DNA from: an uncultured Gammaproteobacteria bacterium
GTDB taxonomy: Bacteria; Pseudomonadota; Gammaproteobacteria; JAURND01
Assembly: GCA_963714975.1 (NCBI GenBank)
Contig: CAVQQD010000002.1
Location: forward strand, 928,001-992,000
Direction: 5' to 3'
Length of the DNA stretch: 64,000 nt
The notes under the pieces were generated by a model. The model was not told the origin of the DNA. It ran no database searches and saw only the letters and a program-made list of their open reading frames with translations. Positions 4,879 to 27,717 of the stretch are shown here, one piece after another; position 1 is the stretch's first letter; every line of letters starts with the position of its first letter. Position numbers and translations under genes: made by a program.

Positions 4879-5142
4879 AAAAAAGGCCAGAACCCCCCTG
4901 TTTTACTGGAGATTCTGGCCTTCTCTGGACATCTTAAGATTGAAACTTGGTGGGGCGGCGAGAATCGAACTCGCGTCCGCAAATCCTCTACCGTCGGTTC
5001 TACATGTGTAGCCTCATCATTTATATAACTAACTAGCGCCCAATGGGCAAGGAAACTAGCTAGCGAGTCTTCTTAATTTAGCAGTTTAAGCGAAGACGCC
5101 TTAAACTACGATCTTATGTGGAATAACCACTGAGGAAGGTCC
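4879..5142 (-). repeat. Displaced copy of ssrA 3' 195 nt plus downstream terminator (attR-like direct repeat of 27647-27913)
   Basis: Near-identical to 27647-27913; 1-nt deletion in the acceptor stem and a few substitutions. Confidence 0.95.
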
Positions 5143-5270
5143 GGGGCTGGGTACTGATTGAATCAGACGTAACATGGTCTCAGAATTGGCCACATCGGTA
5201 AAGTACTTTTTACCATCCGCCGCCTCCAATTTCAGTCGGTGACAATTTGTCACCGACTCACTACCTTCTG
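5143..5270 (-). pseudogene. Internal fragment of BRO-family gene
   Basis: EGSESVTNCHRLKLEAADGKKYFTDVANSETMLRLIQSVPSP parallels EGSEVVTNCHQLKMTAEDGKLRLTDVANAETLLRLIQSVPSP of 25515-26369. Confidence 0.85.
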
Positions 5271-5720: not shown

Positions 5721-8700
5721 TCAAAAACTAATCTTCTCAAGAATATTATAATGATGACAATCCAGTTCGTAGATTTTGAAATGCCTAACATAATTGTCTA
5801 GATTATTAGCGATTGTATCAACATAATATTGGTGGATCTTAAAATTAAAATCAATTGCTTCCTGAGAACTGTCTGGATTTATATTTTTTAACTGGGTATG
5901 GTCAACCCTAATATTAGCTTTAATTAATTTAATCTCTGTACCTTCGAACAATCCACTACAGCCCTTGGGATCATATTTATAGTTAATATCTTGATAAACT
6001 TCTTTAGGAATATTCATATCTTTACAAATATCATGAATTGCTTTTTTATAGTTAAAATAAGAATCTAATAAAATTAATTTACTAACTGCATGGCCACTTT
6101 GTTTCAATTGCCGGGTTATTTCAAATGCCAAGACGCCACCAAAACTCCACCCCAAAAAATTATAGGGCCCTTTAGGTTGAATTTTCTGTAATTGCAAAGT
6201 GTAATATTTAGCTAATTCTTCAAAAGTCAATTTACTTTGTAATAACTGATTGTCTTTTACATGATGTAAAAAATTATTAAAAATAACCAGTTTTTTATTT
6301 TTAAACTTTGGCAATAAATGATTATAGTATGACTCAGCGCCTCCATGTCCCGGCGGAAAAATGAATAACGGATCTTCATTAACATCTTCATTAACTATTT
6401 CAAATGGAATAAAATTCGCAAAATCGCTTTGGGTATTTTCCTGCTCGCCGTCTCTAAGTACAGTAATGCAATGCTTGATTATATTTTTCAAATGATACTC
6501 GAATCGAATTGTAACGAGCCGAGTTATTTTTTTGCCAAGTCGTGTCACAATATTAAAATGTAATTGTCCTTCTGAAACATAACCGCTAATATTAATAAGT
6601 GTACTATCCTGGTTATCTTGATGCATGCTTAATCCCGAATCATCCAATGATATTTGCCAATCTCCTTCCTGCTTATCAAATTGCCCTAAATAATTAAACC
6701 TAATGGGCGGTAGTTTATTAAAAGCAATTGAGCTATTCTCCACCACACTAAAACTGCCATAACCTAATCCTTTATGCGGAATTAATCTTAAGCTTTCTTT
6801 AATATGCTTGATGCTTGCTCTGACCGTATCCTGTAATTCTAACTTCACAGGATACATAATGGTGAACCAACCCACGGTGTAAGAATGATCAATGCTTTCA
6901 TCAATGTGTTCACGGCCATGTCCTTCTAAAGTAATTCCATTAACAGTAGATCCTTGCCAGTCTTTTAAGGCATAAGCCAATGCGGTTAATAGCAAATCAT
7001 TAATCTCCGTGTGGTATGCCTGATTGGCTTTTTGTAACAATTGTTGGGTTATGGTCTTCGGTAGTTTAATCTCTCCTAGCTCTGGTTCATAAATTTCACT
7101 TCTTGAATAATTAGGCAACGAATCTAAAATGCCGTTCCAATAATCAGCTTCATGTTTATGACTCAAGTGATATAGTTCAACTACCTTGACCCACTGACGA
7201 TAACTACTAGCTTTGTTACCTAACACTTCTCCCTTATATAGCCTATGAATATCGTCAGCCAATATTCTCCAGCTGACCGTATCGACAATTAAATGATGCA
7301 GAGCAAAATAAATTCTTGCACTACCATCGGGATAACCTGAAATATAACCTATTTGAAATAATGGACCCTTTGCTAAATCAAATTCCGATTGCCATAAAGT
7401 TAATCGTTGATTAATTTGCTCACTACTCTGATGATTGATTTGCAATCTTTTTAATCCTGAAAATGAGATATTTCTTTGATAAGATTGCGACCACTTATTT
7501 TCTTTTTGATTAAAAATCACCCGGAGAATATCATGCTGCTCGACTAGTTTCTCTATACACGACTCTAATTTATCCTCATCTAATTCAGGAACTCTAATCA
7601 GAAAACTTTGATTCCAATGCCAAGGTCGTTTAAATTTATCTGTAGAAACCTGATCAAAAAACCATTGTTGAATTGGTAATAAATCAAATGTTCCTTCCAG
7701 CAATCCTTGCTCACGCTGAATTTTTAGCGACGGAGTTGTGCTTTCTAATAAATATTGCGCCAGCTTCTCTACGGTACGATGTATAAATATATCTTTCACA
7801 CCACAGTTAATATTTAATTGACGTAGTCGAGAGCTTAACTGAATGCTTGAGATTGAATCACCACCTAACCGAAAGAAATCATCGCCTATGCTAATCTTAT
7901 CAACTGGTAACCCAAGCACTGCTGCATAGACCTCACTTATTTGTTTTTCCAATTCATTGCGTGGAGCAATATAATGATCTGCGCTAACAAATTCAGGGTC
8001 GGGTAATGCTTTTCGATCCAGCTTGCCATTGATGGTTAATGGCAATTTATCCAGCCAGACTAAAGCACTGGGGATCATGTAGTCTGGTAATTGCTGAGAC
8101 AGATAATTAAGCATAGCATTGTGATTTAGTGATCTATCTGCTACATAATACCCAACTAAATATTTATTTCCAGTGGGTAAGCCGCTTTCATTTAAGTGTT
8201 CTCTAGCCAACACCGCGGCCTGCTTGATTTCTGGATAGCTAGACAGTTTAGCTTCAATTTCACCCAACTCAATGCGGAATCCTCTAATTTTTACCTGGAA
8301 ATCATTCCTGCCAATGTATTCAATATTACCATCAGCTAAATAACGCACTAAATCACCGGTTTTATATAAATGGGCATTCTTGTTAGTCGCCTTTTCTTGC
8401 TCCGTTTGAAATGGATTAGCAATGAATTTTTCAGCCGTTAATTCCGGCAAATTCAAATAACCACGCGCTAAGCCAGCTCCACCTACATACAGTTCACCTA
8501 TTGCACCTATGGGCAATGGATTGAGACCAGCATCCACTATATAAATGTTCTGATCCGGAATTCGTCTTCCTATATATGAATTATTTCCTAAGTCTTCTGC
8601 TGCAATGGGCTTGTAAGTTACATGAACTGTTGTCTCAGTTATTCCATACATATTCACTAATAGCGGCTTGGTATAGCCATAAACATCGAACCACGGTTGT

Positions 8701-11700
8701 AATTGCCAGAAATTTAAGGCTTCACCAGCAAAAATAATATATCTGAGGCTGCTTAGCTGATGAGGAGCCGATATTGCTAAATCAATAAATTGATAAAAAA
8801 CACTGGGCGTTTGATTTAAAACAGTTACCCCGTGTTGCTCACAAAGTTCATAAAATAGTTTAATGTCTCTGGTCTGCTCATAACTGGGTATCAACAATTT
8901 ACCGCCATGACATAAGGCTCCCCACATCTCCCAGACGCTAACATCAAATACATAGGCATGAAATAGTGTCCATACATCCTGGCTATTAAAGTGATACCAG
9001 TCATCGGTTGCCAACAACAATCGATGCACATTATTATGCTGCTGCAATACACCTTTGGGTTGGCCCGTAGTTCCGCTGGTATAAATTACATAGGCTAGAT
9101 TGGTACTGTTGATATGCTGCGGCAAATTAGTTTCTTGATAGGCATTTAACTTACTTTGTAATTCATCGCCATCAATCGCTTCGATATGCGTTGCTAAAGC
9201 ATGTTTACTTATGATGTCAGCAAGACGTGCTCGATATATTTCATTAGTTAAACATAGTTTTGCAGCCGTATCTTCTAAAGCATAAGTGATACGTTCATCA
9301 GGATAACGAGGATCCATCGGCACATATGCCGCGCCAGCTTTTAAAACTGCTAAAATGGCTATGAGCATTTTTTCACTGCGATCTAGGCATAAAGCGATTA
9401 AATCATCCCCTTGAAGCTGATAATGCTGCCGCAGATAATGCGCGAGTTGATTCGCTTTTGTATTGAGTTCACGATAAGTGAGCTGTCTGTTCTCATACAC
9501 CAGGGCAATATGGTCTGGCGTTCTTTCAACCTGTTCTTCAAACAACTGGTGTATCGTTTTATCTGCTGGATAATCTCGCTCGGTTTTATTCCAGTCTAGA
9601 ATTATTTTCTGGTAATCAGCAGCATTGAGATAACTGAGCTCATTTTGTTGTTCCACTCCAATGACTGTGATCTGATAGAGCAATGATTCCAAACAGCTTA
9701 ATAGTGTCTCTATAGTTTTCACACTAAACAATTCAGCTGCATATTTGAGATTGATTTGGATTCGTCCTTCTTGTTCATAGGCGGTAATTGCCAACGGATA
9801 ATCTAACGCTTCCATTCCCTGAAATCCACTCAATTTGAGCAAATGATCTTCCATTTTTTGTGGCACAGGATAATTTTCGTATATAAACAAACTATCAAAC
9901 AATCTTCTTCCTGAAGACTGTAATTTAGCTAGATTGATATCACTATAACTATTCATTTCATTAATTTTATTCTGGAGTATTTTTATTTGCTCTATAATAG
10001 TTTCCTCACCTTCATGATTAACGATCAACGGTAAAGTATTTATATATAGACCCACGGAGCTTTCTATCTCATCTATGGGCAAATTCCGACCTGAAATAGT
10101 TGTCCCAACCACAGTAGTCTGGCTATTGCCATATACACTTAATAATTTATGCCAACTATATTGCAACAAGGCATTAACTGTAATGCCATGCTCATAACTA
10201 AAAGCCTTAATAGACTGATACAAAGATTGCTCAGCATGAACACTGGCTTCAGCTTTATCGACGATGAAACGATACTCCGCTAATTTGATGCTTTTTTTAT
10301 CCAGACGGAGTAACCCAGTTAAGTCAGGATAGTCTATAACCTTGGCTAACTCCATGCGCCAATAGTTTTCACTAGCAAGATGCCTCCTTTGCAAATAAGC
10401 CTGACTTAATAGATACGCCACCTCTTCCTGAATATTTGCCAATATTCGTACTTGCATGGCACTATTCGTTCTATTTGTATACAGTTGCAAATACAAATCA
10501 TGAACAAAGCCCAATAATAAAGGAGTACTCCAGCCATCTAGAATCGCATGATGGCTACTAAAAAGACAGCTATAGCTGGCCTCTCCCTGCTTCAGCAAAT
10601 GTATGCGTAGCAACTGGCCTTGATCTAAGTGATAGCTGTGCTGACGATCATGCACCACTAGCTCATTCATGTAATATTCTTGTTGCTGCGGGTCTTTCGC
10701 ACTGATATCACTATACTGCCAATATAACTCTTGATGCTGATCGATGATTTGTACTAACTTCTCATCCCAGGAAAATCGCAAACGCAAGCTCGGATATTTT
10801 TTCAGTGCTCCTTGCCAGGCCATTCTTAATAACTCAGGTTCCAATGAGTTCTCATAGTTAAATAGAAACTGCACCCGGTACGCGGTATCTGTTTCACCTT
10901 GATTCAGAGCATGATAGATAAATCCCTGCTGTAAACTATTGGCTAAATACACATGCGTAATCGCTTGCTGAGCCTGGATCTTATCTAAATAACTCTGCGA
11001 GATAATGTAATCGATATCACTGGTCGTTAAATAGGCTCTCGGCAAGTCAACTGTATGCTTAATAATCGCGAGTACTTCCCTTTTAAATGCTTCTACCAGA
11101 TGATTCAGATCATTCTGACTGAGCTTAGACAATAGCCCAAAACGCAGCTCACCTTGATAAACTGCACCATTGGCATTAATAATATTATTGTCTATATTGG
11201 CATGGGATACCGCCATACCACTTGGCTCACCGGTAATCATCCAGTTACTTTCATCTTTGCCGCTTGCATCAAATTGACCGAGGTAGTTAAAAGTCACTCG
11301 TGGTAAATCCTGATGGCTATAACCCAGTAAGGCCCCATAACCAATCCCTTTATGTGGAATCCTCCTCAGACTTTCTTTCACCTGTACAATCGATTGAGAA
11401 ATATTCTCCACAGTGGCCAATTTAACTGGATACATCGTCGTAAACCAACCTACGGTATGAGTAATATCAATACCCTGGGCAATTTCTTCACGGCCATGGC
11501 CTTCCAAGGTAATGTAAATGTAATGGATTTCCTGATGCGTTAACTGCGCTAAGGCTCTGCCAAAAGCAGTCAGCAATAAATCATTAATCTCGGTATGATA
11601 GGCGTGACCACTGTCTGCCAATAATTGCCTCGTGCGCTCTTTATCCAAACTCATTTCCGCATAACTTTGGCTATCCTCATTGGGTAATAATGCGATTAAA

Positions 11701-14700
11701 TGACCTTCCTCTGCCGCCAGACCAGATAATTCTTCCTGCCAATAACTCCGCTCAACCATTTGGGTTTCTGCATATACTTGCACTTGCTCAACCCATTGCC
11801 GATAACTTGTTCCCTTTCTACCCAGCAATTGTTCACTGCTTTGCTGCAGGATCTCATCCAGCTTATTATTGCTCTGAGCTATACTGAGTTTTTCGTACAG
11901 TTCGCGTAAATCATGGGCTATAATTCGCCAACTGACTGCATCGACTAATAAATGATGCAGCGCAAAGAAAATTTTTCTACTGCCATCTGGATATCCTTCC
12001 AAATAGCCTATTTGGTATAAAGGCATCTCTGCTAATAATTCAAAATGGCTTTGCCAATCTGTTAACATCTCTTGATATTCAGACGTTGTGAACTCACTGA
12101 CATTGGCATAAGCTAGAATAAGCGCGTCAAAACTTATCGCAGGACTATAATATTGTTGGTAATTACCCGCTGTTGTTAATCGATAATTCAATCTAAAGGC
12201 ATCATGATATTCTATTAATTTAACTAAACTATGCTTGAGTAATTCCTGATCTAACTTGCCGGTCTTGATCAAAAAAGCTTGATTCCAATGACCAGGTCGT
12301 GGATAGAAACCACTACTTACTTGGCTGAAAAACCAGGCCTGAATTGGCAAAAAGTCCACTTCTCCTGATAATACACCATTTTCTGTGAGCAGCTGCTCCG
12401 GTAAATTAGCTGCATTCGCCAGCTGCTCTGCTAATACCTTTTCACAGAGCTTTTCTACCGTCTTATGTGCAAAAATATCTTTAACGCTAATCGTTAACTG
12501 CAACTGCCTGCGTATTCTACTGACCAGCTGAATGCTAATAATACTGTCACCGCCTAACCTAAAAAAATCATCCCGTATACCAACACTTTCTGCCGACAAA
12601 CCCAGCGCCTCAGCGTATATCTCACAAACTTGACGTTCGAGGTCATTGGAGGGCGCTACATAATTTAATACGTCGCTGAACTCAGGATCTGGTAAGGCGT
12701 TTCGGTCTAATTTACCATTGATAGTTAATGGCAATTGATCTAAATAGATCAATACATTGGGCACCATATAATCTGGTAATTGCATACGCAAATAATCAAG
12801 AATGCTATTTTCATCTAATGGATTATTCGCAACGTAATAACCCACAAGATATTTACTTTGATTTTGCGTATGTTCTTTAACCGACACCGTCGCTTGGTTT
12901 ATTTCCGAATAGTTCAGTAGTTTATTTTCAATTTCACCTAACTCAATTCTAAAACCACGGATTTTTACCTGAAAGTCATTTCTCCCCAGATACTCGATAT
13001 TCCCGTCCGGTAAATATCGCGCCAAATCTCCCGTTTTATACAAGCGGGCATTCTTGCCAGCCTTTTTTTCTGTTTCACTTTGAAATGGGTTGATGATGAA
13101 ACGTTCTGCAGTTAAATCTGGAAGGTTCAAATAACCTCGTGCCAAACCTACTCCGCCGATATACAGTTCACCAATTACCCCAATGGGCAATGGCTTAAGA
13201 TCTTCATCTAGGATGTATATCCGAACATTAGTAATCGGCTTGCCGATATCAGTACTCAAATCCTGATTTCTATAGTGATTTAATGTCACATAAACTGTCG
13301 ACTCTGTTGGGCCATAAGCATTTATTACATTTACTTGATTATTTTTATAATACTCCAATATCTCTTTTTCCGTTTTATCCCCACCTACTACTAAAGTATT
13401 CAATAATAGCAAATGATCTAAAGTGAGTAGTGCGGGCGGTATTAGTGCAACATTAATCTTATAAAGATTAATATACTCTGATAATAACTGAACATCTTGA
13501 CGTATAGCATCACTCACTATATGCGTTGTATGTCCATTGATAATAACCGTAAATAACTCCCACACATGTGCGTCAAATACATAATTGGCATAGCACAGGC
13601 ACTTTAAAGCGAAAAGCTTATTTTCGTACTGCCTGGTCAGGCCAAACTCTTTGGCCTGCATTACTGCTAAATTCACCACACTTCTATGTTCAATCATTAC
13701 ACCCTTAGGTTTTCCTGTAGTACCGCTGGTATAGATCACATAGGCCAAATTAGCACTGGTAATAGGCTGTGACAGGTTAGTTCCTTGGTAGGCATTTAAT
13801 TTATTTTGTAATTCATTGCTATCAATCGCTTCGATATGCGCTGATAAAGCATGTTTATTTATAATGTTAACAAGGCGTGCTCGATGTATTTCATTAGCTA
13901 AACACAGTTTTGCGCTGGTATCTTTTAAAACATAAGCGATACGTTCATCAGGGTAACCGGGATCCATCGGCACATAGGCTGCACCTGCTTTTAATACTGC
14001 TAAAATCGTTATGAGCATCTGTTCACTGCGATCTAAGCACAATGCAACTAAATCATCCCCTTGTAAGTGATATTGTTGCTGTAGGTAATGCGCGAGTTGA
14101 TTCGCTTTTGTATTGAGTTCACGATAAGTGAACTGTCTGTTCTCATACACTAGGGCAATATGGTCTGGCGTTCTTTCAACCTGCTCTTCAAACAACTGGT
14201 GTATCGTTTTATCCGCCGGATAGTCTTTATCAGTTTTATTCCAATCTATTATTAATTTATTATAATCTTTTGATAACAAACTGGATTTATAGCTTTTACC
14301 TTCTAATGCCAAATCCAAGTTATAAATAAAATATTTCATCAAATAATTGAGGTAGTCTTCCTCTATAAAATCATCATGCGCTACCAGCGTGATATTAAAC
14401 TCCTCTTCTGCCTTCTGAGAAACGTTTAGCACACAAGGAATATTGGTACGTTCATAACCTTGAAGATCAATAATATCTTCCATTGACTCTTGAAAAATAT
14501 GAAAGTGAACAAAATTATAAGCAAATTTATAAACTTCATGACCCATCATACTTTTAATATAACCATAGGGCATTATTTTATATTCATACAGTCTTAGTTT
14601 TTCTTCAAATATTTGCTCTGTGCTTATTTTATCCAGCTTATATCTAAAGGGAATAGTGTTCAGAAATAAACCAAATAATTTATCACCTCCTTCAAACTCA

Positions 14701-17700: not shown

Positions 17701-20700
17701 TTATAAACTTCATGACCCATCATACTTTTAATATAACCATAGGGCATTATTTTATATTCATACAGTCTTAGTTTTTCTTCAAATATTTGCTCTGTGCTTA
17801 TTTTATCCAGCTTATATCTAAAGGGAATAGTGTTCAGAAATAAACCAAATAATTTATCACCTCCTTCAAACTCAGGACGATTATTGACGACCAGACCTAA
17901 AGTCACATCATCACTATTTAAAAATTGGGACAATGTTTCCACATAGGCATGTAAAAATATTGTGTCTACACCTATAGATAGTTCGCGCGCCATCTTGATC
18001 GCTTTCGAAACTTTATCTCCAGTCAAGCTATGACGGCTATAAAACAAACCGTCTGCTGATTTAGTTTTTGAAAAATTCCAATTGATGCTTGGCAGTTCAA
18101 CATCTCGTAAGTAATCTTTCCAAAAATTAATATTATCGACATCTTTGATTGCATTTTGTTCATCCTTAACAAATTCTCCATAGCTAATTGAAAATTCCGG
18201 GGATTCTATTGTTAAGTTATGCACATATTCCTGAACAAACTCATTAATTAACGAAGCCACACTCCAGCCGTCGGTTATTGCATGATGAAATGAAAATATT
18301 AGATCAAATCCATCATCTAATTTATTGACCAGTAACCTGAATAATCCAAACTCTGTAAAATCAAAATTATGAACTCTCTCCTGGGCAATCAATGAGTCTA
18401 CATTTTGATTTTCAAATAATACATAATCTTTGGTCAATGTCTTGGCTATTTCCACGTTATAGCCGGTGCTCACAGTTAAAAATCTGGCGCGTAGTAACTC
18501 ATGCTTTGCGATAAGTTTATTCCATACGGATAAAAACTTATCACTTTCAAAATTACTCGATAATTTATAAGAGAAAACATCATGATAGGCACCATATTCA
18601 TCCAACTCGGATTCCAATAACATGCCCATTTGTAAATAACTGGCGGGATAGGAATCTTCGACGATATCAAAGTCAATTTTCGCCAATTGCGCGGCGGTTA
18701 AAAAACTGAACTTCGTATAGGTCTCTCTCAAAAAAGGCGCTTCATGAATACTCGATTGAATCAGATCAGATAATCTTCCTACTGTTTTTTTATTAAAAAT
18801 ATCTTTAACTTTAACTGCGCTATTTAAAGCAGTATTTATTTTACTGACCAATCTAATAGCAATAATACTATCGCCACCCAACCTGAAGAAATTATCATTA
18901 ATGCCCACCTTCTCTACCGATAAGCCCAGTACTTCGGCATATATTTTACACAGCATATGCTCTAAATCATTGCGCGGTTCTACATAATTCAATTCATCAC
19001 CAAACTCTGGATCCGGTAATGCTTTCCGGTCGAGTTTGCCATTGATCGTTAATGGCAGTTGCTCTATATGCATTAATACATTGGGAACCATATACTCAGG
19101 TAATTGACTATGCAGATAACCAATAATATCATCTGCTGCTAAAGGCCTTGGCGCCACATAATAGCCTACCAGATATTTACTCTGATTTTCCTGATGTTCT
19201 CTTGCCAACACAACTGCTTGTTTTATCTCAGGATAACTCAGCAATTTATTTTCAATCTCGCCCAATTCAATCCTATATCCACGGATTTTTACTTGAAAGT
19301 CATTTCTACCGATATACTCGATACTTCCATCTGGTAAATAACGCGCTAAATCTCCAGTCTTATACAAGCGCGCATTTTTTCCTGTCTGCTTTTCCGCTGC
19401 ACTTTGGAAGGGATTTGCAATAAATCGTTCTGCTGTTAAATCGGGAAGATTTAGATAACCGCGCGCCAAACCTGCACCACCTATATACATCTCGCCTATT
19501 GCCCCCATTGGCAATGGATTGAGACCAGCATCCACTATATAAATGTTTTGATCCGGAATTCGTTTTCCTATATATGAATTATTTCCTAAGTCTTCTGCTG
19601 CTATGGGCTTGTAAGTTACATGAACTGTTGTCTCAGTTATTCCATACATATTCACTAATAGCGGCTTGGCATAGCCATACACATTGAACCAGGGTTGTAA
19701 TTGCCATAAATTTAAGGCTTCACCACCAAAAATAATATATCTGAGGCTGCTTAGCTGATGAGGAGCTGATATTGCTAAATCAATAAATTGATAAAAAACA
19801 CTGGGCGTTTGATTTAAAACAGTTATCCCGTGTTGCTCACAAAGTTCATAAAACAGTTTGATATCTCTGGTCTGCTCATAACTGGGTATCAACAATTTAC
19901 CGCCGTGACATAGGGCTCCCCACATCTCCCAGACGCTAAAGTCAAATACATAGGCATGAAATAGTGTCCATACATCCTGGCTATTAAAGTGATACCAGTC
20001 ATCAGTTGCCAACAACAATCGATGCACATTGTTATGCTGCTGCAATACACCTTTGGGTTGACCCGTAGTTCCGCTGGTATAAATTACATAGGCCAAATTA
20101 GTATTGGTAATAGGTGATGAGAGGTTAGTTCCTTGGTAGGCATTTAATTTATTTTGTAATTCATTGCTATCAATCGCTTCGATAGGCGTTGATAAAGTAT
20201 GTTTATTTATGATGTCAGCAAGACGTGCTCGATGTATTTCATTAGCTAAACACAGTTTTGCGCTGGTATCTTCTAAAATATAAGCGATACGTTCATCAGG
20301 ATAACCCGGATCCATTGGCACATAGGCTGCTCCTGCTTTTAATACTGCCAAAATCGCTATGAGCATCTGTTCACTGCGATCTAAGCACAATGCAACCAAA
20401 TCATCCCCTTGCAAGTGATATTGTTGCTGTAGGTAATGTGCAAGTTGATTTGCTTTAGCATTTAATTCACGATAGCTTAACTGCTGATCTTCATAAACCA
20501 CTGCAATATGATCTGGAGTTCTTTCAACCTGTTCTGCAAACAGTTGATGAATGGTTTTATCTGCTGGATAGTCTTTATCAGTTTTATTCCAATCATATAT
20601 TAATCTGTCAAAATCTGCGTTTGAAATCAATTTAAGCTGATTGAAGCCACGATTAATATTATTCTGTTCTAAACTATTTAAAATAAATTGGTAGGTTTTA

Positions 20701-23700
20701 AAAATACATGCAACAGTTTCTTTATCATATATATCTACTAAATAGCTGATATTAAAGACAACCTTGTCCGCATACTCCTTGGCAAAAACTGATATTCCAA
20801 ATTTCTCAGAATTATTTGAATCCAGTAGTTTACTAATATCCATGTTTATATTAACTTCGTCAGTGCCTTTGAAATTATGCATGGTAAACATAATTTGCAT
20901 CAACTCAGCGACTTCTTCTCCTTTCTTCGGAGATAAATTAACGATGTTATTTAAATTGATATCTGCATATTGATTTAAAAATATAATTTCATCGTTTACC
21001 TTGCGCAGGTTATCTAATATTGTGTCCTCAGAAGAGTAATCAAACATCAATGGCAGCGCACTAACAAATGGACCTAAGGCTTTTATAAAATCATATCTGC
21101 GATTAGAAACAGTAATGCCGATAGGAAATTTTTCATCATTAAAATTATATTTATCGAGAACATGATAGAAAATAGTCAAAAATAGTGTGTATAAGCTAAT
21201 ATCATTATTCGTTGATAACTGTAGCAATTTCTCCATTCTCAATGTGGAGATTTCAAAAGTAAAATTCTCTCCAACATTATCAGAACTATCTATAGTTATT
21301 TTGGACAGCTGGATAGGCTGTGCTTTGTTGAATTTTACTAGTAGTTTATTTATGGCAACATTATAGTCTGCCGTTTGTAATAAGGCATACTGATGGGGGA
21401 TATAATCTAAGTAATCAAATTTAGAAGCCTCGGGTATATCTACACCTTCTTTAATTTTATTATAGTTATCTAAAAGTTCAGCTATTAATAATTCAACTGA
21501 TTGGGCATCCGTTAGAATATGATGATGAGTCAAATTTAAAATAATATCGTGGCCTTTATCTATGATCGCTATCTCAGCACAAATTAACGAACCACCATCT
21601 AATCTAAAAATATAATTGGCGCTCACATTGGCATATTCAGCTACCTCCTCTTCTCTAAGATAGACTTTTCGTATTAATATCTCTTCAAATGATAATTTAT
21701 AATGAGATTTATCGATTAGTCGAATTTTTAAAATTCTATTATTCAAAAAGAGAAATCTTATGGCTTCTTCAAAAACATCAACATCGACATCACTTATTCT
21801 CAACAATACCGGAACATTGTAAGTTGTTGGCAGGGCATCCAAATTACTTTGAATATATATAGCATTTTGTATATTTGAAATTCTATTATCATTAGCTAAC
21901 AGTTCATCTGATATTTTGAAAATATTGATCGGTTTATGCTGTTCTCCACTGGATTCTAGCAGCAGCGTAATATGATTGGATAGAGATTCTACACTTCTAA
22001 ATTGATAAAAATCTTCGAGCTTTACTTCGGTAAATTCCTTGGATAATCGAGAAGCTGCTAGCATTGCTGCTAAAGAATTGCCCCCTAATTTAAAGAAATC
22101 GTCTCTTATTCCCACTTTGCTCGTTGGCAAACCCAGCGCTGCTGCGTATACCTCGCAAAGTTTATGGTCCAAATCATTGCGAGGCGCTATATAGGTGAAT
22201 TTAATGCTGGACTCTGGTTCAGGCAAAGCTCGTAAGTCCACTTTTCCATTGATGGTCAATGGCAACTTATCTAGACGAATTAATATGCTTGGTACCATGT
22301 AGTCTGGTAGCTGACTATGCAGATAATCAAGAATAGCATTTTCTTCTAATTGACTATCGGCGACATAATAACCGATTAGGTACTTATTACTGTTATCTTC
22401 AGCATGATGTTCTTTAGCTATCACCACAGCTTGCTTTATTTGTGGATAATTGACCAATTTGCTTTCGATTTCACCTGGTTCAATTCTCAAACCATGAATT
22501 TTTATCTGAAAGTCACTTCTGCCAATAAATTCTATATTTCCATCAGGCAAATAGCGGGCTAGATCCCCCGTCTTATATAACCTAGAATTCTTACTCGCTT
22601 TTTTTTCTACTTCGGTTTGGAAAGGATTAGTAATAAAACGTTCCGCAGTTAAATCTGGAAGATTCAAATACCCGCGTGCTAAACCAATGCCACCGATATA
22701 TAACTCTCCTATTGCCCCCACTGGCAAAGGATTGAAATTTGGGTCCAGGATGTATATCGTAATGTTGGCAATAGGTTTTCCAATATTGGTATTTAAATCA
22801 TCACCTTTGTAATGATTTAACGTGGCACAGACAGTTGATTCCGTGGGCCCATAGGCGTTTATTATGTTTATTTGATTATTCCTATAGTGCTCTAATAGTC
22901 TTTTTTCTGTTTTTTCTCCCCCTATTATTAAAGTACGTAGCGGCAATAAGCTGTCAATTGTTAATATTGCTGGAGGTATAGTTGCTATTTTAATCTGATG
23001 GAGATTAATATAGTCCGATAATAATTCCATATCGTGAAGTATACTATTTTTCACTATATGGATAGTATGTCCATGGGTTATAACGGGAAATACTTCACTG
23101 ACATGAACATCAAATACACAATTGGTATACCATAAGCTATGAATTGATGATCGGGTGTCTTGGAATTGCGTGGATAAATCAATCTCTTGGGCTTGTGCAA
23201 TTAGCAAATTTGTTACGCCTTTATGGGCAATCATCACCCCTTTTGGCTTTCCTGTCGTTCCACTTGTATAAATCACATAGGCTAAATTAGCGCTCAAAAT
23301 ATTTTTAACTGGGTTAGTCTCTGAAAAAGGTTTCAACTTTTTCTGTAACCCATGACTATCGATAGCTTCTATCTCAGTTGTCAATTGGTGATGATTGATG
23401 AAATTCGCAATTTGATCTTGATATATCGCATTCGTTATTACTGCCTTTGTCTCAGTATCCTTTAAAATATAAATAATACGCTCTTCAGGATAGCTTAGAT
23501 CTATTGGCACGTATGCCGCACCAGCCTTTAATACGGCCAAAATTGCTATTAACATATATTCGCTGCGGTCTAGATACAAAGCAATTAAATCATCCCCATG
23601 AATAGTATATTTTTCACGTAAATACTGCGCGAATTGGTTTGCTTTGGCATTAAGTTCGTAATAGGTAAGTTGCATGTCTTCATAGATCATCGCGACATGG

Positions 23701-24212
23701 TTTGGCGTTCTCTCTACCTGCTCTTCAAATAATTGATGGATGGTCTTTTCTTCCGGGAATTCTTTATTGGTTTTGTTCCATTCATAAACTATTTTTTGGT
23801 AATCCTCAGGCGATAATAATTCCTCTTTTTTTATAATTTCTTCTTCATAGGTCTTCGTGGAAACTACCGGCCAAGAGGAATAATGGCCTTGAGATAGCGT
23901 AATAACAGCGTCAACTAAGGTTTCAATTTCTACTTCATTTAATGAACCTCCGCTCAGTTCATATCCTTCATTTTCATCCTTAAACAGTATTATGTTATTT
24001 TTCGTGCATAAAACAGCTTTATTGCTGTTATCTTTATTTTTTTTTATCCATTTGAAAAAATCATTTACATCAAAAAATAGAATATAGTCATAGGTATTAG
24101 CAGTATCATCAGATTTTAAAGAGCTAATTTCATGGCCTAAGATATTTATTTCTTCTATAAACTCATCTATAGCTTTAAATTCCCCTAAAAATTTTAATTT
24201 AAGTGTTTTCAT
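5721..24212 (-). CDS. Five-module non-ribosomal peptide synthetase: N-ext-A-T-C-A-T-C-A-T-C-A-T-E-C-A-T-E-TE
   Basis: 5 x YVIYTSGTTG.PKG; T motifs GGNSL, GGDSI x4; C motifs HHILTD, HHAITD x2, HHAILD; E motifs HHLLVD and HHLIVD with EGHGRE; TE GWSFG. Confidence 0.97.
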   Translation of the reverse strand: MKTLKLKFLGEFKAIDEFIEEINILGHEISSLKSDDTANTYDYILFFDVNDFFKWIKKNKDNSNKAVLCTKNNIILFKDENEGYELSGGSLNEVEIETLVDAVITLSQGHYSSWPVVSTKTYEEEIIKKEELLSPEDYQKIVYEWNKTNKEFPEEKTIHQLFEEQVERTPNHVAMIYEDMQLTYYELNAKANQFAQYLREKYTIHGDDLIALYLDRSEYMLIAILAVLKAGAAYVPIDLSYPEERIIYILKDTETKAVITNAIYQDQIANFINHHQLTTEIEAIDSHGLQKKLKPFSETNPVKNILSANLAYVIYTSGTTGKPKGVMIAHKGVTNLLIAQAQEIDLSTQFQDTRSSIHSLWYTNCVFDVHVSEVFPVITHGHTIHIVKNSILHDMELLSDYINLHQIKIATIPPAILTIDSLLPLRTLIIGGEKTEKRLLEHYRNNQINIINAYGPTESTVCATLNHYKGDDLNTNIGKPIANITIYILDPNFNPLPVGAIGELYIGGIGLARGYLNLPDLTAERFITNPFQTEVEKKASKNSRLYKTGDLARYLPDGNIEFIGRSDFQIKIHGLRIEPGEIESKLVNYPQIKQAVVIAKEHHAEDNSNKYLIGYYVADSQLEENAILDYLHSQLPDYMVPSILIRLDKLPLTINGKVDLRALPEPESSIKFTYIAPRNDLDHKLCEVYAAALGLPTSKVGIRDDFFKLGGNSLAAMLAASRLSKEFTEVKLEDFYQFRSVESLSNHITLLLESSGEQHKPINIFKISDELLANDNRISNIQNAIYIQSNLDALPTTYNVPVLLRISDVDVDVFEEAIRFLFLNNRILKIRLIDKSHYKLSFEEILIRKVYLREEEVAEYANVSANYIFRLDGGSLICAEIAIIDKGHDIILNLTHHHILTDAQSVELLIAELLDNYNKIKEGVDIPEASKFDYLDYIPHQYALLQTADYNVAINKLLVKFNKAQPIQLSKITIDSSDNVGENFTFEISTLRMEKLLQLSTNNDISLYTLFLTIFYHVLDKYNFNDEKFPIGITVSNRRYDFIKALGPFVSALPLMFDYSSEDTILDNLRKVNDEIIFLNQYADINLNNIVNLSPKKGEEVAELMQIMFTMHNFKGTDEVNINMDISKLLDSNNSEKFGISVFAKEYADKVVFNISYLVDIYDKETVACIFKTYQFILNSLEQNNINRGFNQLKLISNADFDRLIYDWNKTDKDYPADKTIHQLFAEQVERTPDHIAVVYEDQQLSYRELNAKANQLAHYLQQQYHLQGDDLVALCLDRSEQMLIAILAVLKAGAAYVPMDPGYPDERIAYILEDTSAKLCLANEIHRARLADIINKHTLSTPIEAIDSNELQNKLNAYQGTNLSSPITNTNLAYVIYTSGTTGQPKGVLQQHNNVHRLLLATDDWYHFNSQDVWTLFHAYVFDFSVWEMWGALCHGGKLLIPSYEQTRDIKLFYELCEQHGITVLNQTPSVFYQFIDLAISAPHQLSSLRYIIFGGEALNLWQLQPWFNVYGYAKPLLVNMYGITETTVHVTYKPIAAEDLGNNSYIGKRIPDQNIYIVDAGLNPLPMGAIGEMYIGGAGLARGYLNLPDLTAERFIANPFQSAAEKQTGKNARLYKTGDLARYLPDGSIEYIGRNDFQVKIRGYRIELGEIENKLLSYPEIKQAVVLAREHQENQSKYLVGYYVAPRPLAADDIIGYLHSQLPEYMVPNVLMHIEQLPLTINGKLDRKALPDPEFGDELNYVEPRNDLEHMLCKIYAEVLGLSVEKVGINDNFFRLGGDSIIAIRLVSKINTALNSAVKVKDIFNKKTVGRLSDLIQSSIHEAPFLRETYTKFSFLTAAQLAKIDFDIVEDSYPASYLQMGMLLESELDEYGAYHDVFSYKLSSNFESDKFLSVWNKLIAKHELLRARFLTVSTGYNVEIAKTLTKDYVLFENQNVDSLIAQERVHNFDFTEFGLFRLLVNKLDDGFDLIFSFHHAITDGWSVASLINEFVQEYVHNLTIESPEFSISYGEFVKDEQNAIKDVDNINFWKDYLRDVELPSINWNFSKTKSADGLFYSRHSLTGDKVSKAIKMARELSIGVDTIFLHAYVETLSQFLNSDDVTLGLVVNNRPEFEGGDKLFGLFLNTIPFRYKLDKISTEQIFEEKLRLYEYKIMPYGYIKSMMGHEVYKFAYNFVHFHIFQESMEDIIDLQGYERTNIPCVLNVSQKAEEEFNITLVAHDDFIEEDYLNYLMKYFIYNLDLVLEGKSYKSSLLSKDYNKLIIDWNKTDKDYPADKTIHQLFAEQVERTPDHIAVVYEDQQLSYRELNAKANQLAHYLQQQYHLQGDDLVALCLDRSEQMLIAILAVLKAGAAYVPMDPGYPDERIAYILEDTSAKLCLANEIHRARLADIINKHTLSTPIEAIDSNELQNKLNAYQGTNLSSPITSTNLAYVIYTSGTTGQPKGVLQQHNNVHRLLLATDDWYHFNSQDVWTLFHAYVFDFSVWEMWGALCHGGKLLIPSYEQTRDIKLFYELCEQHGITVLNQTPSVFYQFIDLAISAPHQLSSLRYIIFGGEALNLWQLQPWFNVYGYAKPLLVNMYGITETTVHVTYKPIAAEDLGNNSYIGKRIPDQNIYIVDAGLNPLPMGAIGEMYIGGAGLARGYLNLPDLTAERFIANPFQSAAEKQTGKNARLYKTGDLARYLPDGSIEYIGRNDFQVKIRGYRIELGEIENKLLSYPEIKQAVVLAREHQENQSKYLVGYYVAPRPLAADDIIGYLHSQLPEYMVPNVLMHIEQLPLTINGKLDRKALPDPEFGDELNYVEPRNDLEHMLCKIYAEVLGLSVEKVGINDNFFRLGGDSIIAIRLVSKINTALNSAVKVKDIFNKKTVGRLSDLIQSSIHEAPFLRETYTKFSFLTAAQLAKIDFDIVEDSYPASYLQMGMLLESELDEYGAYHDVFSYKLSSNFESDKFLSVWNKLIAKHELLRARFLTVSTGYNVEIAKTLTKDYVLFENQNVDSLIAQERVHNFDFTEFGLFRLLVNKLDDGFDLIFSFHHAITDGWSVASLINEFVQEYVHNLTIESPEFSISYGEFVKDEQNAIKDVDNINFWKDYLRDVELPSINWNFSKTKSADGLFYSRHSLTGDKVSKAIKMARELSIGVDTIFLHAYVETLSQFLNSDDVTLGLVVNNRPEFEGGDKLFGLFLNTIPFRYKLDKISTEQIFEEKLRLYEYKIMPYGYIKSMMGHEVYKFAYNFVHFHIFQESMEDIIDLQGYERTNIPCVLNVSQKAEEEFNITLVAHDDFIEEDYLNYLMKYFIYNLDLALEGKSYKSSLLSKDYNKLIIDWNKTDKDYPADKTIHQLFEEQVERTPDHIALVYENRQFTYRELNTKANQLAHYLQQQYHLQGDDLVALCLDRSEQMLITILAVLKAGAAYVPMDPGYPDERIAYVLKDTSAKLCLANEIHRARLVNIINKHALSAHIEAIDSNELQNKLNAYQGTNLSQPITSANLAYVIYTSGTTGKPKGVMIEHRSVVNLAVMQAKEFGLTRQYENKLFALKCLCYANYVFDAHVWELFTVIINGHTTHIVSDAIRQDVQLLSEYINLYKINVALIPPALLTLDHLLLLNTLVVGGDKTEKEILEYYKNNQVNVINAYGPTESTVYVTLNHYRNQDLSTDIGKPITNVRIYILDEDLKPLPIGVIGELYIGGVGLARGYLNLPDLTAERFIINPFQSETEKKAGKNARLYKTGDLARYLPDGNIEYLGRNDFQVKIRGFRIELGEIENKLLNYSEINQATVSVKEHTQNQSKYLVGYYVANNPLDENSILDYLRMQLPDYMVPNVLIYLDQLPLTINGKLDRNALPDPEFSDVLNYVAPSNDLERQVCEIYAEALGLSAESVGIRDDFFRLGGDSIISIQLVSRIRRQLQLTISVKDIFAHKTVEKLCEKVLAEQLANAANLPEQLLTENGVLSGEVDFLPIQAWFFSQVSSGFYPRPGHWNQAFLIKTGKLDQELLKHSLVKLIEYHDAFRLNYRLTTAGNYQQYYSPAISFDALILAYANVSEFTTSEYQEMLTDWQSHFELLAEMPLYQIGYLEGYPDGSRKIFFALHHLLVDAVSWRIIAHDLRELYEKLSIAQSNNKLDEILQQSSEQLLGRKGTSYRQWVEQVQVYAETQMVERSYWQEELSGLAAEEGHLIALLPNEDSQSYAEMSLDKERTRQLLADSGHAYHTEINDLLLTAFGRALAQLTHQEIHYIYITLEGHGREEIAQGIDITHTVGWFTTMYPVKLATVENISQSIVQVKESLRRIPHKGIGYGALLGYSHQDLPRVTFNYLGQFDASGKDESNWMITGEPSGMAVSHANIDNNIINANGAVYQGELRFGLLSKLSQNDLNHLVEAFKREVLAIIKHTVDLPRAYLTTSDIDYIISQSYLDKIQAQQAITHVYLANSLQQGFIYHALNQGETDTAYRVQFLFNYENSLEPELLRMAWQGALKKYPSLRLRFSWDEKLVQIIDQHQELYWQYSDISAKDPQQQEYYMNELVVHDRQHSYHLDQGQLLRIHLLKQGEASYSCLFSSHHAILDGWSTPLLLGFVHDLYLQLYTNRTNSAMQVRILANIQEEVAYLLSQAYLQRRHLASENYWRMELAKVIDYPDLTGLLRLDKKSIKLAEYRFIVDKAEASVHAEQSLYQSIKAFSYEHGITVNALLQYSWHKLLSVYGNSQTTVVGTTISGRNLPIDEIESSVGLYINTLPLIVNHEGEETIIEQIKILQNKINEMNSYSDINLAKLQSSGRRLFDSLFIYENYPVPQKMEDHLLKLSGFQGMEALDYPLAITAYEQEGRIQINLKYAAELFSVKTIETLLSCLESLLYQITVIGVEQQNELSYLNAADYQKIILDWNKTERDYPADKTIHQLFEEQVERTPDHIALVYENRQLTYRELNTKANQLAHYLRQHYQLQGDDLIALCLDRSEKMLIAILAVLKAGAAYVPMDPRYPDERITYALEDTAAKLCLTNEIYRARLADIISKHALATHIEAIDGDELQSKLNAYQETNLPQHINSTNLAYVIYTSGTTGQPKGVLQQHNNVHRLLLATDDWYHFNSQDVWTLFHAYVFDVSVWEMWGALCHGGKLLIPSYEQTRDIKLFYELCEQHGVTVLNQTPSVFYQFIDLAISAPHQLSSLRYIIFAGEALNFWQLQPWFDVYGYTKPLLVNMYGITETTVHVTYKPIAAEDLGNNSYIGRRIPDQNIYIVDAGLNPLPIGAIGELYVGGAGLARGYLNLPELTAEKFIANPFQTEQEKATNKNAHLYKTGDLVRYLADGNIEYIGRNDFQVKIRGFRIELGEIEAKLSSYPEIKQAAVLAREHLNESGLPTGNKYLVGYYVADRSLNHNAMLNYLSQQLPDYMIPSALVWLDKLPLTINGKLDRKALPDPEFVSADHYIAPRNELEKQISEVYAAVLGLPVDKISIGDDFFRLGGDSISSIQLSSRLRQLNINCGVKDIFIHRTVEKLAQYLLESTTPSLKIQREQGLLEGTFDLLPIQQWFFDQVSTDKFKRPWHWNQSFLIRVPELDEDKLESCIEKLVEQHDILRVIFNQKENKWSQSYQRNISFSGLKRLQINHQSSEQINQRLTLWQSEFDLAKGPLFQIGYISGYPDGSARIYFALHHLIVDTVSWRILADDIHRLYKGEVLGNKASSYRQWVKVVELYHLSHKHEADYWNGILDSLPNYSRSEIYEPELGEIKLPKTITQQLLQKANQAYHTEINDLLLTALAYALKDWQGSTVNGITLEGHGREHIDESIDHSYTVGWFTIMYPVKLELQDTVRASIKHIKESLRLIPHKGLGYGSFSVVENSSIAFNKLPPIRFNYLGQFDKQEGDWQISLDDSGLSMHQDNQDSTLINISGYVSEGQLHFNIVTRLGKKITRLVTIRFEYHLKNIIKHCITVLRDGEQENTQSDFANFIPFEIVNEDVNEDPLFIFPPGHGGAESYYNHLLPKFKNKKLVIFNNFLHHVKDNQLLQSKLTFEELAKYYTLQLQKIQPKGPYNFLGWSFGGVLAFEITRQLKQSGHAVSKLILLDSYFNYKKAIHDICKDMNIPKEVYQDINYKYDPKGCSGLFEGTEIKLIKANIRVDHTQLKNINPDSSQEAIDFNFKIHQYYVDTIANNLDNYVRHFKIYELDCHHYNILEKISF
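14218..20594. repeat. Tandem duplication of a 3174-bp NRPS module (A-T-C)
   Basis: Sequence repeats at offset 3174 (14221=17395=20569); identical shadow ORFs at 15302/18476 and 15974/19148. Confidence 0.97.
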
Positions 24213-25147
24213 TATTCACCACTTTTTTGAAGTAGCCAATTTTTTTCTTTTAGCTTAGGGGAAGTGAATTTATCAATTAAACCTGCTCTATCTAATTGAA
24301 TAAGAATGTTTTTAAGTAATGGGCTATCTTTTGTTAATCTGAAGTCCTTATAGGTCTCTTCTAACATAGAAGTTGCTTCATTTTCCAAAAAACCTAATTG
24401 AAGTAGTATTTGTCTCTCGAATTCCATTTGGACTTGCACACCTAAATATAACTCTAGAAACGATGGCAATATATTGGCAATATTTTCCTTATATGCATCA
24501 GAAATGTTCTTCCAAATATATTTTAATAAGTGAAAGAAAATTCCAGAATGTCTAGCTTCATCTGACAAATGATCGTTTAGCATTTTTTGAAAGAATGGAT
24601 GTGTTTCACTTTTAGCTGTCATGCTAACAATTTCTTTAGTCAGCGTATTTTCAGCTAAACAAACAGCGATCAAGTCAAATACTCCATGGTATTTGTTTGG
24701 TAGTTTTTCTTTTACGGTTTTCATTGCTCTTTCTATTTCGATAGTCTTTGGCAATGGCAATGGTGCAATATTAGTATTTTTTTCAATTTGCAGCATGCAA
24801 TCATATGCAACATAGGCATGATAGGATTCATCAACCATAATGGTATACAGATTAAGTTTTTGCTCTTCAGAAAACTCAATTGGCAAGGTATTAGTAACTA
24901 CAGTTAGAATTACATTATTCACCACTCTTGTTTCTATCACAGCAATATCATTAGAATATTTGTAAAAAGATTGGGTAAGCAAGTAATTGAGCGCACCATT
25001 ACCTTTCTCCAGTATTTTTGGATGAACTGCTAATGGTTGCTGAGAAATAGGCAAAAAATAGCCTTTAGTGGTAGCGTCAAAGACGATTCGTGGCCTGCTC
25101 CTCACACTAGAGCGTTTTTCCCATTTATCTTGTATCTTATGTTCCAT
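24212..25147 (-). CDS. AurF/PvfB/HamC-like diiron amine N-oxygenase
   Basis: WEKRSSVRSRPR start, diiron ligands VDESYH, AENTLT and DHLSDEARH; stop overlaps the NRPS start (TAATG). Confidence 0.88.
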   Translation of the reverse strand: MEHKIQDKWEKRSSVRSRPRIVFDATTKGYFLPISQQPLAVHPKILEKGNGALNYLLTQSFYKYSNDIAVIETRVVNNVILTVVTNTLPIEFSEEQKLNLYTIMVDESYHAYVAYDCMLQIEKNTNIAPLPLPKTIEIERAMKTVKEKLPNKYHGVFDLIAVCLAENTLTKEIVSMTAKSETHPFFQKMLNDHLSDEARHSGIFFHLLKYIWKNISDAYKENIANILPSFLELYLGVQVQMEFERQILLQLGFLENEATSMLEETYKDFRLTKDSPLLKNILIQLDRAGLIDKFTSPKLKEKNWLLQKSGE

Positions 25148-26724: not shown

Positions 26725-27139
26725 TAAACAGCTCCTGATTAATATGTTTATATTGCATATTGCCAATTACAATTGGCGGCCAGGAGCTAAACACCGTAAT
26801 CAGAACGGCGGACTAATTTCCTCTTCAGGTATTGTATTCGTCCACTCCCAGCCATGGGCTAGGCAAAAAACCGTATCTAACAGGACGGTTACCGCTGATT
26901 AGTGTGTTTAGCACCAGTTCGGAGGGTAGCATCGGTCTTCAAACAAATCAATCCTAAAGCAAACTGCGTAGTCAACTATCATTTATGAGTTATCTTGCGG
27001 GAAAATCTTGTAAAGATTTAAGACTTTAAACACTGATATTACATAATTATTAAAATAAAATTATATTTTTTACTGCATAAGTCGGTTGGGCAATTTCCTA
27101 TTCATCAATACATTAGAAAATAAACCAGGATGGGTCATT

Positions 27140-27646: not shown

Positions 27647-27692
27647 AAAAAAAGCCAGAACCCCCCCCTATTTTACTGGAGATCCTGGCCTT
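27647..27692 (-). terminator. Intrinsic terminator downstream of ssrA
   Basis: Minus strand GGCCAGGATCTCC...GGGGGTTCTGGC followed by T7; duplicated at 4879-4922. Confidence 0.75.
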
Positions 27693-27717
27693 CTCTGGAC
27701 ATCTTAAGATTGAAACT

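Follow-up and report, generated by a model that had tools for sequence, protein, structure and literature searches.

The locus described here raises the question of what an AurF-family diiron oxygenase does when its gene runs directly into the gene of a five-module non-ribosomal peptide synthetase (NRPS)—whether it oxidizes the starter unit of the assembly line and at which atom—and what kind of peptide such a pair would release. Both genes lie on the minus strand of a 64,000-nucleotide stretch (the window below; contig CAVQQD010000002.1, positions 928,001 to 992,000) from the genome of an uncultured gammaproteobacterium. An earlier note on this DNA predicted from them an N-oxidized, doubly dehydrated product, N-ox-Xaa-Dhb-Dhb-D-Xaa-D-Xaa-OH (Dhb, dehydrobutyrine). 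Here, we consider slightly more probable than not a peptide that begins with an oxidized starter, continues with a probably dehydrated Thr-Thr pair, carries two D residues, and is freed by the thioesterase, all encoded on an island at a transfer-messenger RNA (tmRNA) gene. The pairing of such an oxygenase with an NRPS is uncharacterized but widespread and is a variant of known systems.

Organization of the oxygenase–NRPS operon

The two genes are read as a translationally coupled two-gene operon: at their junction, GGTGAATAATGAAAACA (TAATG), the stop codon TAA of the oxygenase and the start codon ATG of the synthetase share one base, and an AT-rich spacer of 367 bp lies upstream of the pair. 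This overlap, the exact position of both open reading frames (ORFs), the domain architecture, and the absence of accessory genes had been proposed in the earlier note and were all recovered using the ORF list and Pfam and motif scans. The synthetase consists of an N-terminal domain (residues 1 to ~118) followed by adenylation (A), thiolation (T), condensation (C), epimerization (E), and thioesterase (TE) domains in the order A1-T1-C2-A2-T2-C3-A3-T3-C4-A4-T4-E4-C5-A5-T5-E5-TE, which in Pfam terms corresponds to five AMP-binding, five PP-binding, six Condensation-superfamily (four C and two E), and one Thioesterase matches. The features are as follows:

24212–25147, minus strand: gene of the AurF-family diiron oxygenase, 311 aa, Pfam PF11583
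5721–24212, minus strand: NRPS gene, 6163 aa, single uninterrupted ORF
23859–24212, minus strand: N-terminal alpha/beta domain of ~115 aa before A1, no known family, AlphaFold (AF2) model
21933–23765, minus strand: module 1, A1-T1, code DVSTIGAVCK (Tyr-like aromatic), T motif GGNSL
20568–21935, minus strand: C2, divergent condensation domain, HHILTDA, best PDB match only 48.8 bits
18696–20570, minus strand: module 2, A2-T2, code DFWNIGMVHK (Thr)
17388–18695, minus strand: C3, CmodAA-related, of a sister clade by PDB matches and clade analysis
15522–17396, minus strand: module 3, A3-T3, code DFWNIGMVHK (Thr), duplicate of module 2
14214–15521, minus strand: C4, 99.8% identical to C3
12381–14225, minus strand: module 4, A4-T4, code DAWLVGAVYK (hydrophobic)
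11013–12380, minus strand: E4, epimerization domain with all seven scanned motifs
9573–11000, minus strand: C5, DCL-type condensation domain by PDB matches and tree
7716–9575, minus strand: module 5, A5-T5, code DVWNIAMVHK (Thr-derived variant)
6393–7715, minus strand: E5, epimerization domain with all seven scanned motifs
5724–6425, minus strand: thioesterase domain, PF00975 at 86.3 bits, motif GWSFG

The oxygenase scores 55.1 bits against the Pfam AurF model (gathering cut-off 29.6), and its seven iron ligands—E72, E107, H110, E166, H193, E197, and H200—are invariant in an alignment of 25 homologues, so that the family assignment made earlier stands. Its ligand pattern, E / ExxH / E / HxxxExxH, aligns with that of the AurF structures 3chh and 2jcd, which are the best solved match of its profile (E 1.5e-15). 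It does not qualify as AurF proper, the 4-aminobenzoate N-oxygenase, since the corresponding NCBIfam model NF045603 gives 38.4 bits against a cut-off of 620.

Pocket codes of the A domains, read off after aligning them with module 2 as the anchor, coincide in all five cases with those previously read by eye. We take DFWNIGMVHK to be a Thr code and DASTIAAVCK and DASTVAAVCK to be Tyr codes. The code of A5 is regarded as a Thr-derived variant because this domain is 84% identical to A2 and A3, and Asp at the first position of the A1 code points to an alpha-amino acid as the substrate of module 1. Both E domains possess PIQxWF, HWNQ, HHxxxD, TEIND, EGHGRE, RxIPxxGxGY, and FNYLGQ. C5, with McyB (175 bits), bacitracin synthase 3 (148), and PvdL (145) as top PDB matches, falls inside the DCL clade, which fits the preceding E4 domain and supports the two E domains proposed earlier. 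C2 stands on a branch of length 3.06 among the LCL-type rows of the C-domain tree.

Coupling of the oxygenase to loading modules

A search of 5.8 billion proteins yielded 81 homologues of similar length at 32–91% identity, and an oxygenase 91% identical to that of the window is encoded on another contig. A scan covering a single genome for each species gave 33 related loci, mostly from Legionellales, Francisella, Shewanella, and cyanobacteria, and in 14 of them an NRPS gene opening with A-T starts directly after the oxygenase. Within the 15-row clade which includes the window enzyme (support 100/99), the same adjacency is seen in nine rows; in the remaining six, the oxygenase neighbors NRPS genes that are arranged otherwise or lies on a short contig. 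Two natural fusions with the composition AurF-A-T(-C) were found, one of 926 aa in Legionella quateirensis and another of 1352 aa (P0246). Of the nine species of the host's GTDB family, two have an oxygenase match, the host included.

The loading modules of these cassettes are not uniform: DASTIAAVCK, DASTVAAVCK, DAWTIAAVCK, DAFWIGGTFK, DFWNIGMVHK, and several unassigned codes were observed, of which DAWTIAAVCK is read as Phe-type and DAFWIGGTFK as a Val code, and all loading A domains of the oxygenase-coupled cassettes retain the Asp that binds the alpha-amino group. Differing loading codes imply that the common target is a backbone atom rather than a side chain, and as judged from these sequences, the alpha-amine of the starter held on the carrier domain is the most likely candidate. 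The phylogeny is in keeping with this: in the oxygenase tree, the 16-row clade has as its closest outgroup (support 81/79) a protein of Burkholderia cenocepacia, 33% identical, that is probably a HamC homologue. HamC is reported to oxidize NRPS-tethered L-valine (PMC11659414), and both PvfB and HamC are described as acting on NRPS-bound valine (PMC11659414; PMC11705231). Thus, adjacency in 14 of 33 loci, the two oxygenase-A-T fusions, and the position next to a probable HamC homologue support, at least in spirit, the oxidative start on the loading module proposed in the earlier note. Two considerations reduce the force of this argument: the link to HamC is weak at 81/79 and the B. cenocepacia locus is unannotated, its HamC identity following from context only, and the substrates named for the codes are presumed ones, none of the six codes looked up in open-access literature having been found.

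The chemistry we propose would begin with activation of a Tyr-like aromatic amino acid by A1 and its loading onto T1, where the oxygenase would convert the starter's free alpha-amine into a hydroxylamine and possibly further into the nitroso/oxime tautomer; the site and the extent of oxidation, like the substrates, are predictions from sequence. The chain would then be extended by Thr, Thr, a hydrophobic residue epimerized to D, and a Thr-like residue likewise epimerized to D, with C3 and C4 probably dehydrating both Thr residues to dehydrobutyrine. The thioesterase would release the peptide, and release could equally be cyclizing. In the formula predicted earlier, the oxidative start and, by virtue of E4 and E5, the D residues are supported, the dehydrations are not secure, and the linear “-OH” terminus is an assumption.

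Two of the related loci deserve separate mention. On plasmid2 of the cultured Fischerella sp. NIES-4106 (L038, 16001–29459), an oxygenase 59% identical to that of the window precedes a 2064-aa NRPS, and the pair is followed by histidine-decarboxylase-like, tryptophan-halogenase-like, and O-methyltransferase genes; we know of no product of this locus. In an uncultured Legionella metagenome-assembled genome (L004, 9722–12712), the oxygenase-coupled loading module is followed by a module with the code DAWLLGAVCK, resembling module 4 of the window, and then by an E domain that shares 41% identity with E4.

The N-terminal domain preceding the loading module

The first ~118 residues of the NRPS match no Pfam family, Formyl_trans_N included, and yet a domain is kept at this position in ten other oxygenase-coupled NRPSs at 14–32% identity, with a shared start M-K-x-L … G-H. 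Its AF2 model has an alpha/beta fold (mean predicted local distance difference test score 76.6, predicted template modelling score 0.75). In a Foldseek search, the formylation domain of LgrA ranked first at a weak E of 6.5e-3, and in a structural search against representatives, LgrA again came first (Z 7.9), ahead of HypX (7.8), formyltetrahydrofolate dehydrogenase (7.6), and Fmt (7.3); receiver domains are nearly equal (Z 6.4–7.5), values below 8 being not decisive. Comparison with the ESM Atlas gave no usable match (scores 0.86 or lower), and no formyltransferase catalytic motif was noticed on reading the domain sequence.

In both fusion proteins, the oxygenase itself occupies the N-terminal position corresponding to this domain. 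A complex prediction for the oxygenase and the domain scored 0.01 against a mark of 0.32, which speaks neither for nor against binding. It is an attractive idea that the modelled domain may dock the oxygenase or present the T1-bound starter to it.

Condensation domains following the threonine modules

Whether the two Thr residues are dehydrated depends on C3 and C4. Their best PDB matches are McyA-C (8jbr, 178 bits) and the AmbE CmodAA domain (7r9x, 97 bits), with all further ones at 76 bits or less, whereas C5, as a DCL-type control, scores 91 and 35 bits against these two structures. CmodAA domains dehydrate the donor residue before condensation (PMC10880069; PMC11342130). In common with such domains (AmbE-C2, AlbB-C2/C3, McyA-C, and LgnD-C2), C3 and C4, apart from having them as the best structure matches, keep HHxxxDG intact and are located directly after Thr modules.

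C3 was scored against 1.84 billion representatives, giving 39,786 matches at E 0.001 or better, of which the best 150 were analysed. Among these best 150, 66 domains are C3-like (185 bits or more, window domains excluded). A tree was built from 75 C domains, a random subsample of 529 found plus all six of the window, with CmodAA references defined by motif and not by name. In this tree, the C3-like domains are monophyletic (24 rows, support 100 by the Shimodaira–Hasegawa-like approximate likelihood ratio test) with the motif-bearing clade as their sister group (18 rows, support 94); the two together fall within a single 44-row group (support 99) apart from DCL and LCL domains.

The signature residues weigh against dehydration. 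In the survey of CmodAA domains, Lys or Arg of the motif [K/R]SVLLAAH is present in 50 of 50 domains, His in 48 of 50, and at least one Arg of the Arg pair of motif C6 in every domain (PMC11342130). C3 and C4 read DTIFLHAY at the former position, with Asp for Lys/Arg and Tyr for His, and Lys-Ile in place of the Arg pair, K-x being found in most of the clade. All 66 C3-like domains depart from [K/R]SVLLAAH, nearly all with Asp at the Lys/Arg position, and the conserved sequence of the clade is instead D-x-x-F-L-x-A-Y. Besides that, the clade lies beside the motif-bearing CmodAA domains and is not nested inside them. The upstream modules give a divided testimony: where a recognizable A domain precedes a C3-like domain (n = 42), the code is Thr in 13 cases, Ser in 15, Asp/Asn in five, Cys in one, and other in eight, so that Ser or Thr codes account for 28 of 42 and the remaining 14 domains follow other residues. 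Ser/Thr codes are also found before 42 of 83 other C domains of the same proteins (37 Thr, 5 Ser, 7 Asp/Asn, and 34 other), a share which is high partly because this comparison set includes canonical KSVLLAAH CmodAA domains after Thr modules.

Being closest to CmodAA domains and forming a separate clade devoid of the signature, C3 and C4 are regarded as CmodAA relatives of an undescribed sister type, for which two dehydrations are plausible but unproven; formation of dehydrobutyrine from both Thr residues remains the best guess, at what these sequences suggest to be roughly an even chance. The “doubly dehydrated” product claimed earlier retains the support of the nearest structures and loses that of the signature residues. 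The strongest competing view is that C3 and C4 only condense, or exert another side function, with the Thr-Thr pair kept intact and its hydroxyls possibly available for lactone formation by the thioesterase. It gains from the missing signature, from the distinctness of the clade, and from those 14 of 42 members that follow Asp/Asn, Val, Gly-like, or other codes; it is opposed by the wide margin with which two CmodAA structures come nearest, by the sister relation to motif-bearing domains in a group free of DCL and LCL types, and by the enrichment of Ser codes upstream (15 of 42 versus 5 of 83). We hold it to be a tenable, if not the favored, explanation. In either case, the clade bears on an open question, namely which sequence features make a C domain dehydrate its donor. 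Its members may be listed in supplementary tables of the CmodAA papers.

Oxidation at carbon as an alternative

With oxidation of the alpha-amine as the preferred reading, it should be considered that the oxygenase could instead hydroxylate or desaturate a carbon of the starter, for instance at the beta position, leaving the amine untouched. Reactions at C-H bonds are known from diiron carboxylate enzymes of other families, and the sequence by itself does not determine the type of reaction. Such an activity is nevertheless unlikely in view of the AurF-type ligand set with the third histidine in HxxxExxH, of the nearest functionally studied neighbor being an N-oxygenase (PMC11659414), and of one homologous cassette (L010) that loads a Thr-coded starter, in which the beta-hydroxyl is already present.

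For the cyanobacterial relatives of the type A-T-Cy-A-T-TE (Cy, heterocyclization domain), a role as oxidative decarboxylase similar to LynB7/BarH was also considered and discarded, as those enzymes resemble PtmU3 and have His/Asp ligands that differ from the AurF pattern (PMC10127204). CylC-type dimetal halogenases are described as only distantly similar to AurF (PMC8406957), and the N-oxygenases of chalkophomycin, being flavin or heme enzymes, are not relevant for comparison.

Tandem duplication of a module and residence on a tmRNA island

Modules 2 and 3 form an almost perfect repetition:

14300–20624: tandem duplication of an A-T-C* unit, period 3174 bp

Positions 14300–17450 and 17474–20624 coincide at 99–100 of 100 nucleotides in 100-nt windows over ~3.1 kb; A2 and A3 are 99.8% identical, and A2-T2-C3 differs from A3-T3-C4 by only two or three residues. 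Such a near-perfect repeat implies that the module was duplicated very recently or that the assembly misjudged its copy number. The five modules proposed earlier are indeed read in the assembly as five A and five T domains, and this count may still err, as it depends on the assembled copy number of a near-identical 3.2-kb tandem repeat; this is a further point to be set against the pentapeptide.

The operon sits on a 22.5-kb genomic island of low GC content, integrated at the tmRNA gene and bounded by a direct repeat; its elements are as follows:

4879–5142 (left) and 27647–27913 (right): direct repeat of 267 bp, 97% identity, carrying the 3′ part of tmRNA
27718–28078, minus strand: intact tmRNA gene, the attachment site, by ARAGORN and Rfam RF00023 (196 bits)
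4948–5227, minus strand: partial second tmRNA copy at the far island end, Rfam RF00023 at 67.2 bits
25515–26435, minus strand: Bro-N domain gene inside the island, PF02498 at 34.2 bits
5144–5268: Bro-N fragment, 80% identical to the Bro-N gene

The window contains precisely two copies of a 27-nt core of the repeat, against none in 100 shuffles, and the GC fraction between the repeats is 0.33–0.42 versus 0.40–0.48 in the window beyond the tmRNA gene. Apart from the two genes, the island contains the Bro-N gene, the Bro-N fragment, small ORFs, and a match to the sRNA-Xcc1 family. Neither an integrase (with inter-repeat ORFs of at least 40 aa considered) nor a phosphopantetheinyl transferase (PPTase), an MbtH protein, or an exporter was detected in the island, and its ORF scan, in line with the earlier note, revealed no other biosynthetic gene. 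The host genome (2.56 Mb, three contigs, 93.75% complete) possesses a 242-aa open frame with a match to PPTases of the ACPS family ~56 kb upstream of the window; a search of the same genome for MbtH found none.

These circumstances admit the suspicion that the operon is carried along silently by a decaying island, or that its five-module form is an assembly artefact of the repeat. The lack of an integrase, the Bro-N remnants, and the near-perfect repeat are in its favor, as is the outcome for three public metagenome runs, where the best share of the sampled words was 0.09. An 18.5-kb ORF with no internal stop and all core motifs kept argues in the opposite direction, along with the 91%-identical oxygenase on another contig. 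A relative ~91% identical to the NRPS, present in one metagenome at a word depth of ~55x, also fits a gene that is being maintained; its contigs break at the repeats and so speak neither for nor against the tandem duplication. On balance, a passenger or an artefact appears quite improbable.

The sRNA-Xcc1 match (26770–26853, minus strand, 63.5 bits versus a gathering cut-off of 53) is located between the Bro-N and tmRNA genes, and this family is linked with mobile DNA. The tag peptide of the intact tmRNA gene, as read by ARAGORN, is VNDEVAFGKVA, which is unusual and lacks the typical Ala-Ala ending.

Relation to known assembly lines

Among characterized systems, PvfB/PvfC and HamC/HamD, leading to pyrazine N-oxides, valdiazen, and fragin, share with the window an oxygenase gene placed directly upstream of the NRPS gene, and their N-oxygenase takes as its substrate an amino acid carried by the partner NRPS. 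Their NRPS is a single A-T-R module (R, reductase) with reductive release, whereas that of the window comprises five modules and a TE and has an extra N-terminal domain. The accessory genes HamA/PvfA, HamB, and HamE/PvfD have no counterpart in the island, where the other ORFs are Bro-N and small ones.

The earlier note held that AurF-like enzymes pair with short, reductase-ended NRPSs, overlooking althiomycin, where an AurF-like Alb2/AlmD works with a six-module line combining NRPS and polyketide synthase (PKS) and is proposed to form an oxime from the N-terminal amine (PMC3445576). Further AurF-like oxygenases have been proposed beyond short NRPSs, namely LitN (PMC10616846) and ActI/MatA and TsnB7 (PMC5719088). 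These precedents make an oxidative start credible and at the same time less unprecedented than previously thought. As with Alb2/AlmD and Alb4-Alb5 or AlmA-AlmB, an AurF-like oxygenase of ~315 aa is combined here with a multi-module line; the NRPS/PKS hybrid, Cy domains, O-methyltransferase, major facilitator superfamily exporter, and type II TE of the althiomycin pathway are absent from the island. The likeness concerns the gene setting, Alb2/AlmD having been compared by description and not by sequence.

The extra alpha/beta domain before the loading A domain recalls the initiation module of LgrA (formylation domain-A-T), which modifies the alpha-amine of a tethered starter and whose formylation domain was the top match in both fold searches. 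Unlike the latter, the domain of the window extends over only ~115 aa and has neither a Formyl_trans_N match nor, on reading, a catalytic motif. C3 and C4 are likewise unlike CmodAA domains in belonging to a sister clade with D-x-x-F-L-x-A-Y and without the C6 Arg pair. The A-T-E-TE end resembles that of ACV synthetase, where a terminal E-TE pair sets free a peptide whose last residue is D-configured, product and organism being unrelated. Thus, the system is similar to pvf/ham and althiomycin at its start, to CmodAA lines in the middle, and to ACV synthetase at its end, being a strict member of none; neither a description of the oxygenase–NRPS cassette or its codes nor a characterized member of the family was found in open-access literature, subscription journals and supplementary files lying outside that scope.

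The weakest alternative, that the oxygenase, in the manner of AurF or CmlI, converts a free aromatic amine such as p-aminophenylalanine to a nitro-aromatic which A1 then loads, can appeal to the unusual aromatic-type code DVSTIGAVCK and to AurF as the best solved match but is very improbable given related cassettes loading Val- and Thr-coded starters without an aryl amine, fusion of the oxygenase to A-T in two proteins, a score of 38 bits where the NCBIfam AurF model requires 620, and no aminophenylalanine pathway genes in the island.

A broader proposal may be added, which we offer tentatively and consider doubtful as a whole: the oxygenase and the [~115-aa domain]-A-T unit would constitute a portable cassette for an oxidized N-cap, its N-terminal domain being a vestigial formylation-type domain presenting the T1-bound starter to the trans-acting oxygenase, and the D-x-x-F-L-x-A-Y domains a functionally distinct, undescribed subtype next to CmodAA. 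If this were true, the cassette would have spread among Legionellales, Francisella, Shewanella, and cyanobacteria, with the oxygenase fused to it in two lineages. As pharmacophores, hydroxylamine, oxime, or nitroso groups at the N-terminus are both rare and reactive, few assembly-line routes to them are known (pvf/ham and althiomycin), and occurrence of the cassette in amoeba- and fish-associated lineages and in the culturable Fischerella, combined with variable starters, makes it a ready handle for genome mining.

Neighboring genes

Two genes which the earlier note had not listed are found just outside the left repeat by Pfam:

3833–4765, minus strand: 2-oxoglutarate-Fe dioxygenase, PF10014
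2900–3658, plus strand: VanX-type D-Ala-D-Ala dipeptidase

Both were considered as members of the cluster and rejected: they lie beyond the attachment repeat and a tblastn search found no counterpart in the 33 related loci, so that their proximity to an NRPS with a predicted D,D-terminated product is probably coincidental. The N-terminus of the dipeptidase looks lipoprotein-like on reading the translation. Elsewhere in the window, a 230-aa ORF at 2120–2812 (minus strand) corresponds to the first half of FadL/TodX (profile positions 41–223 of 421) and looks truncated, and the homologue of Mfd (TRCF) at 57341–60505 (minus strand) has only 733 aa, with overlapping ORFs of 215 and 205 aa just upstream, so that this gene may be split or frameshifted. 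A 1170-aa ORF at 36560–40072 (minus strand) has Pyr_redox_2 at residues 387–595 as its sole Pfam match.

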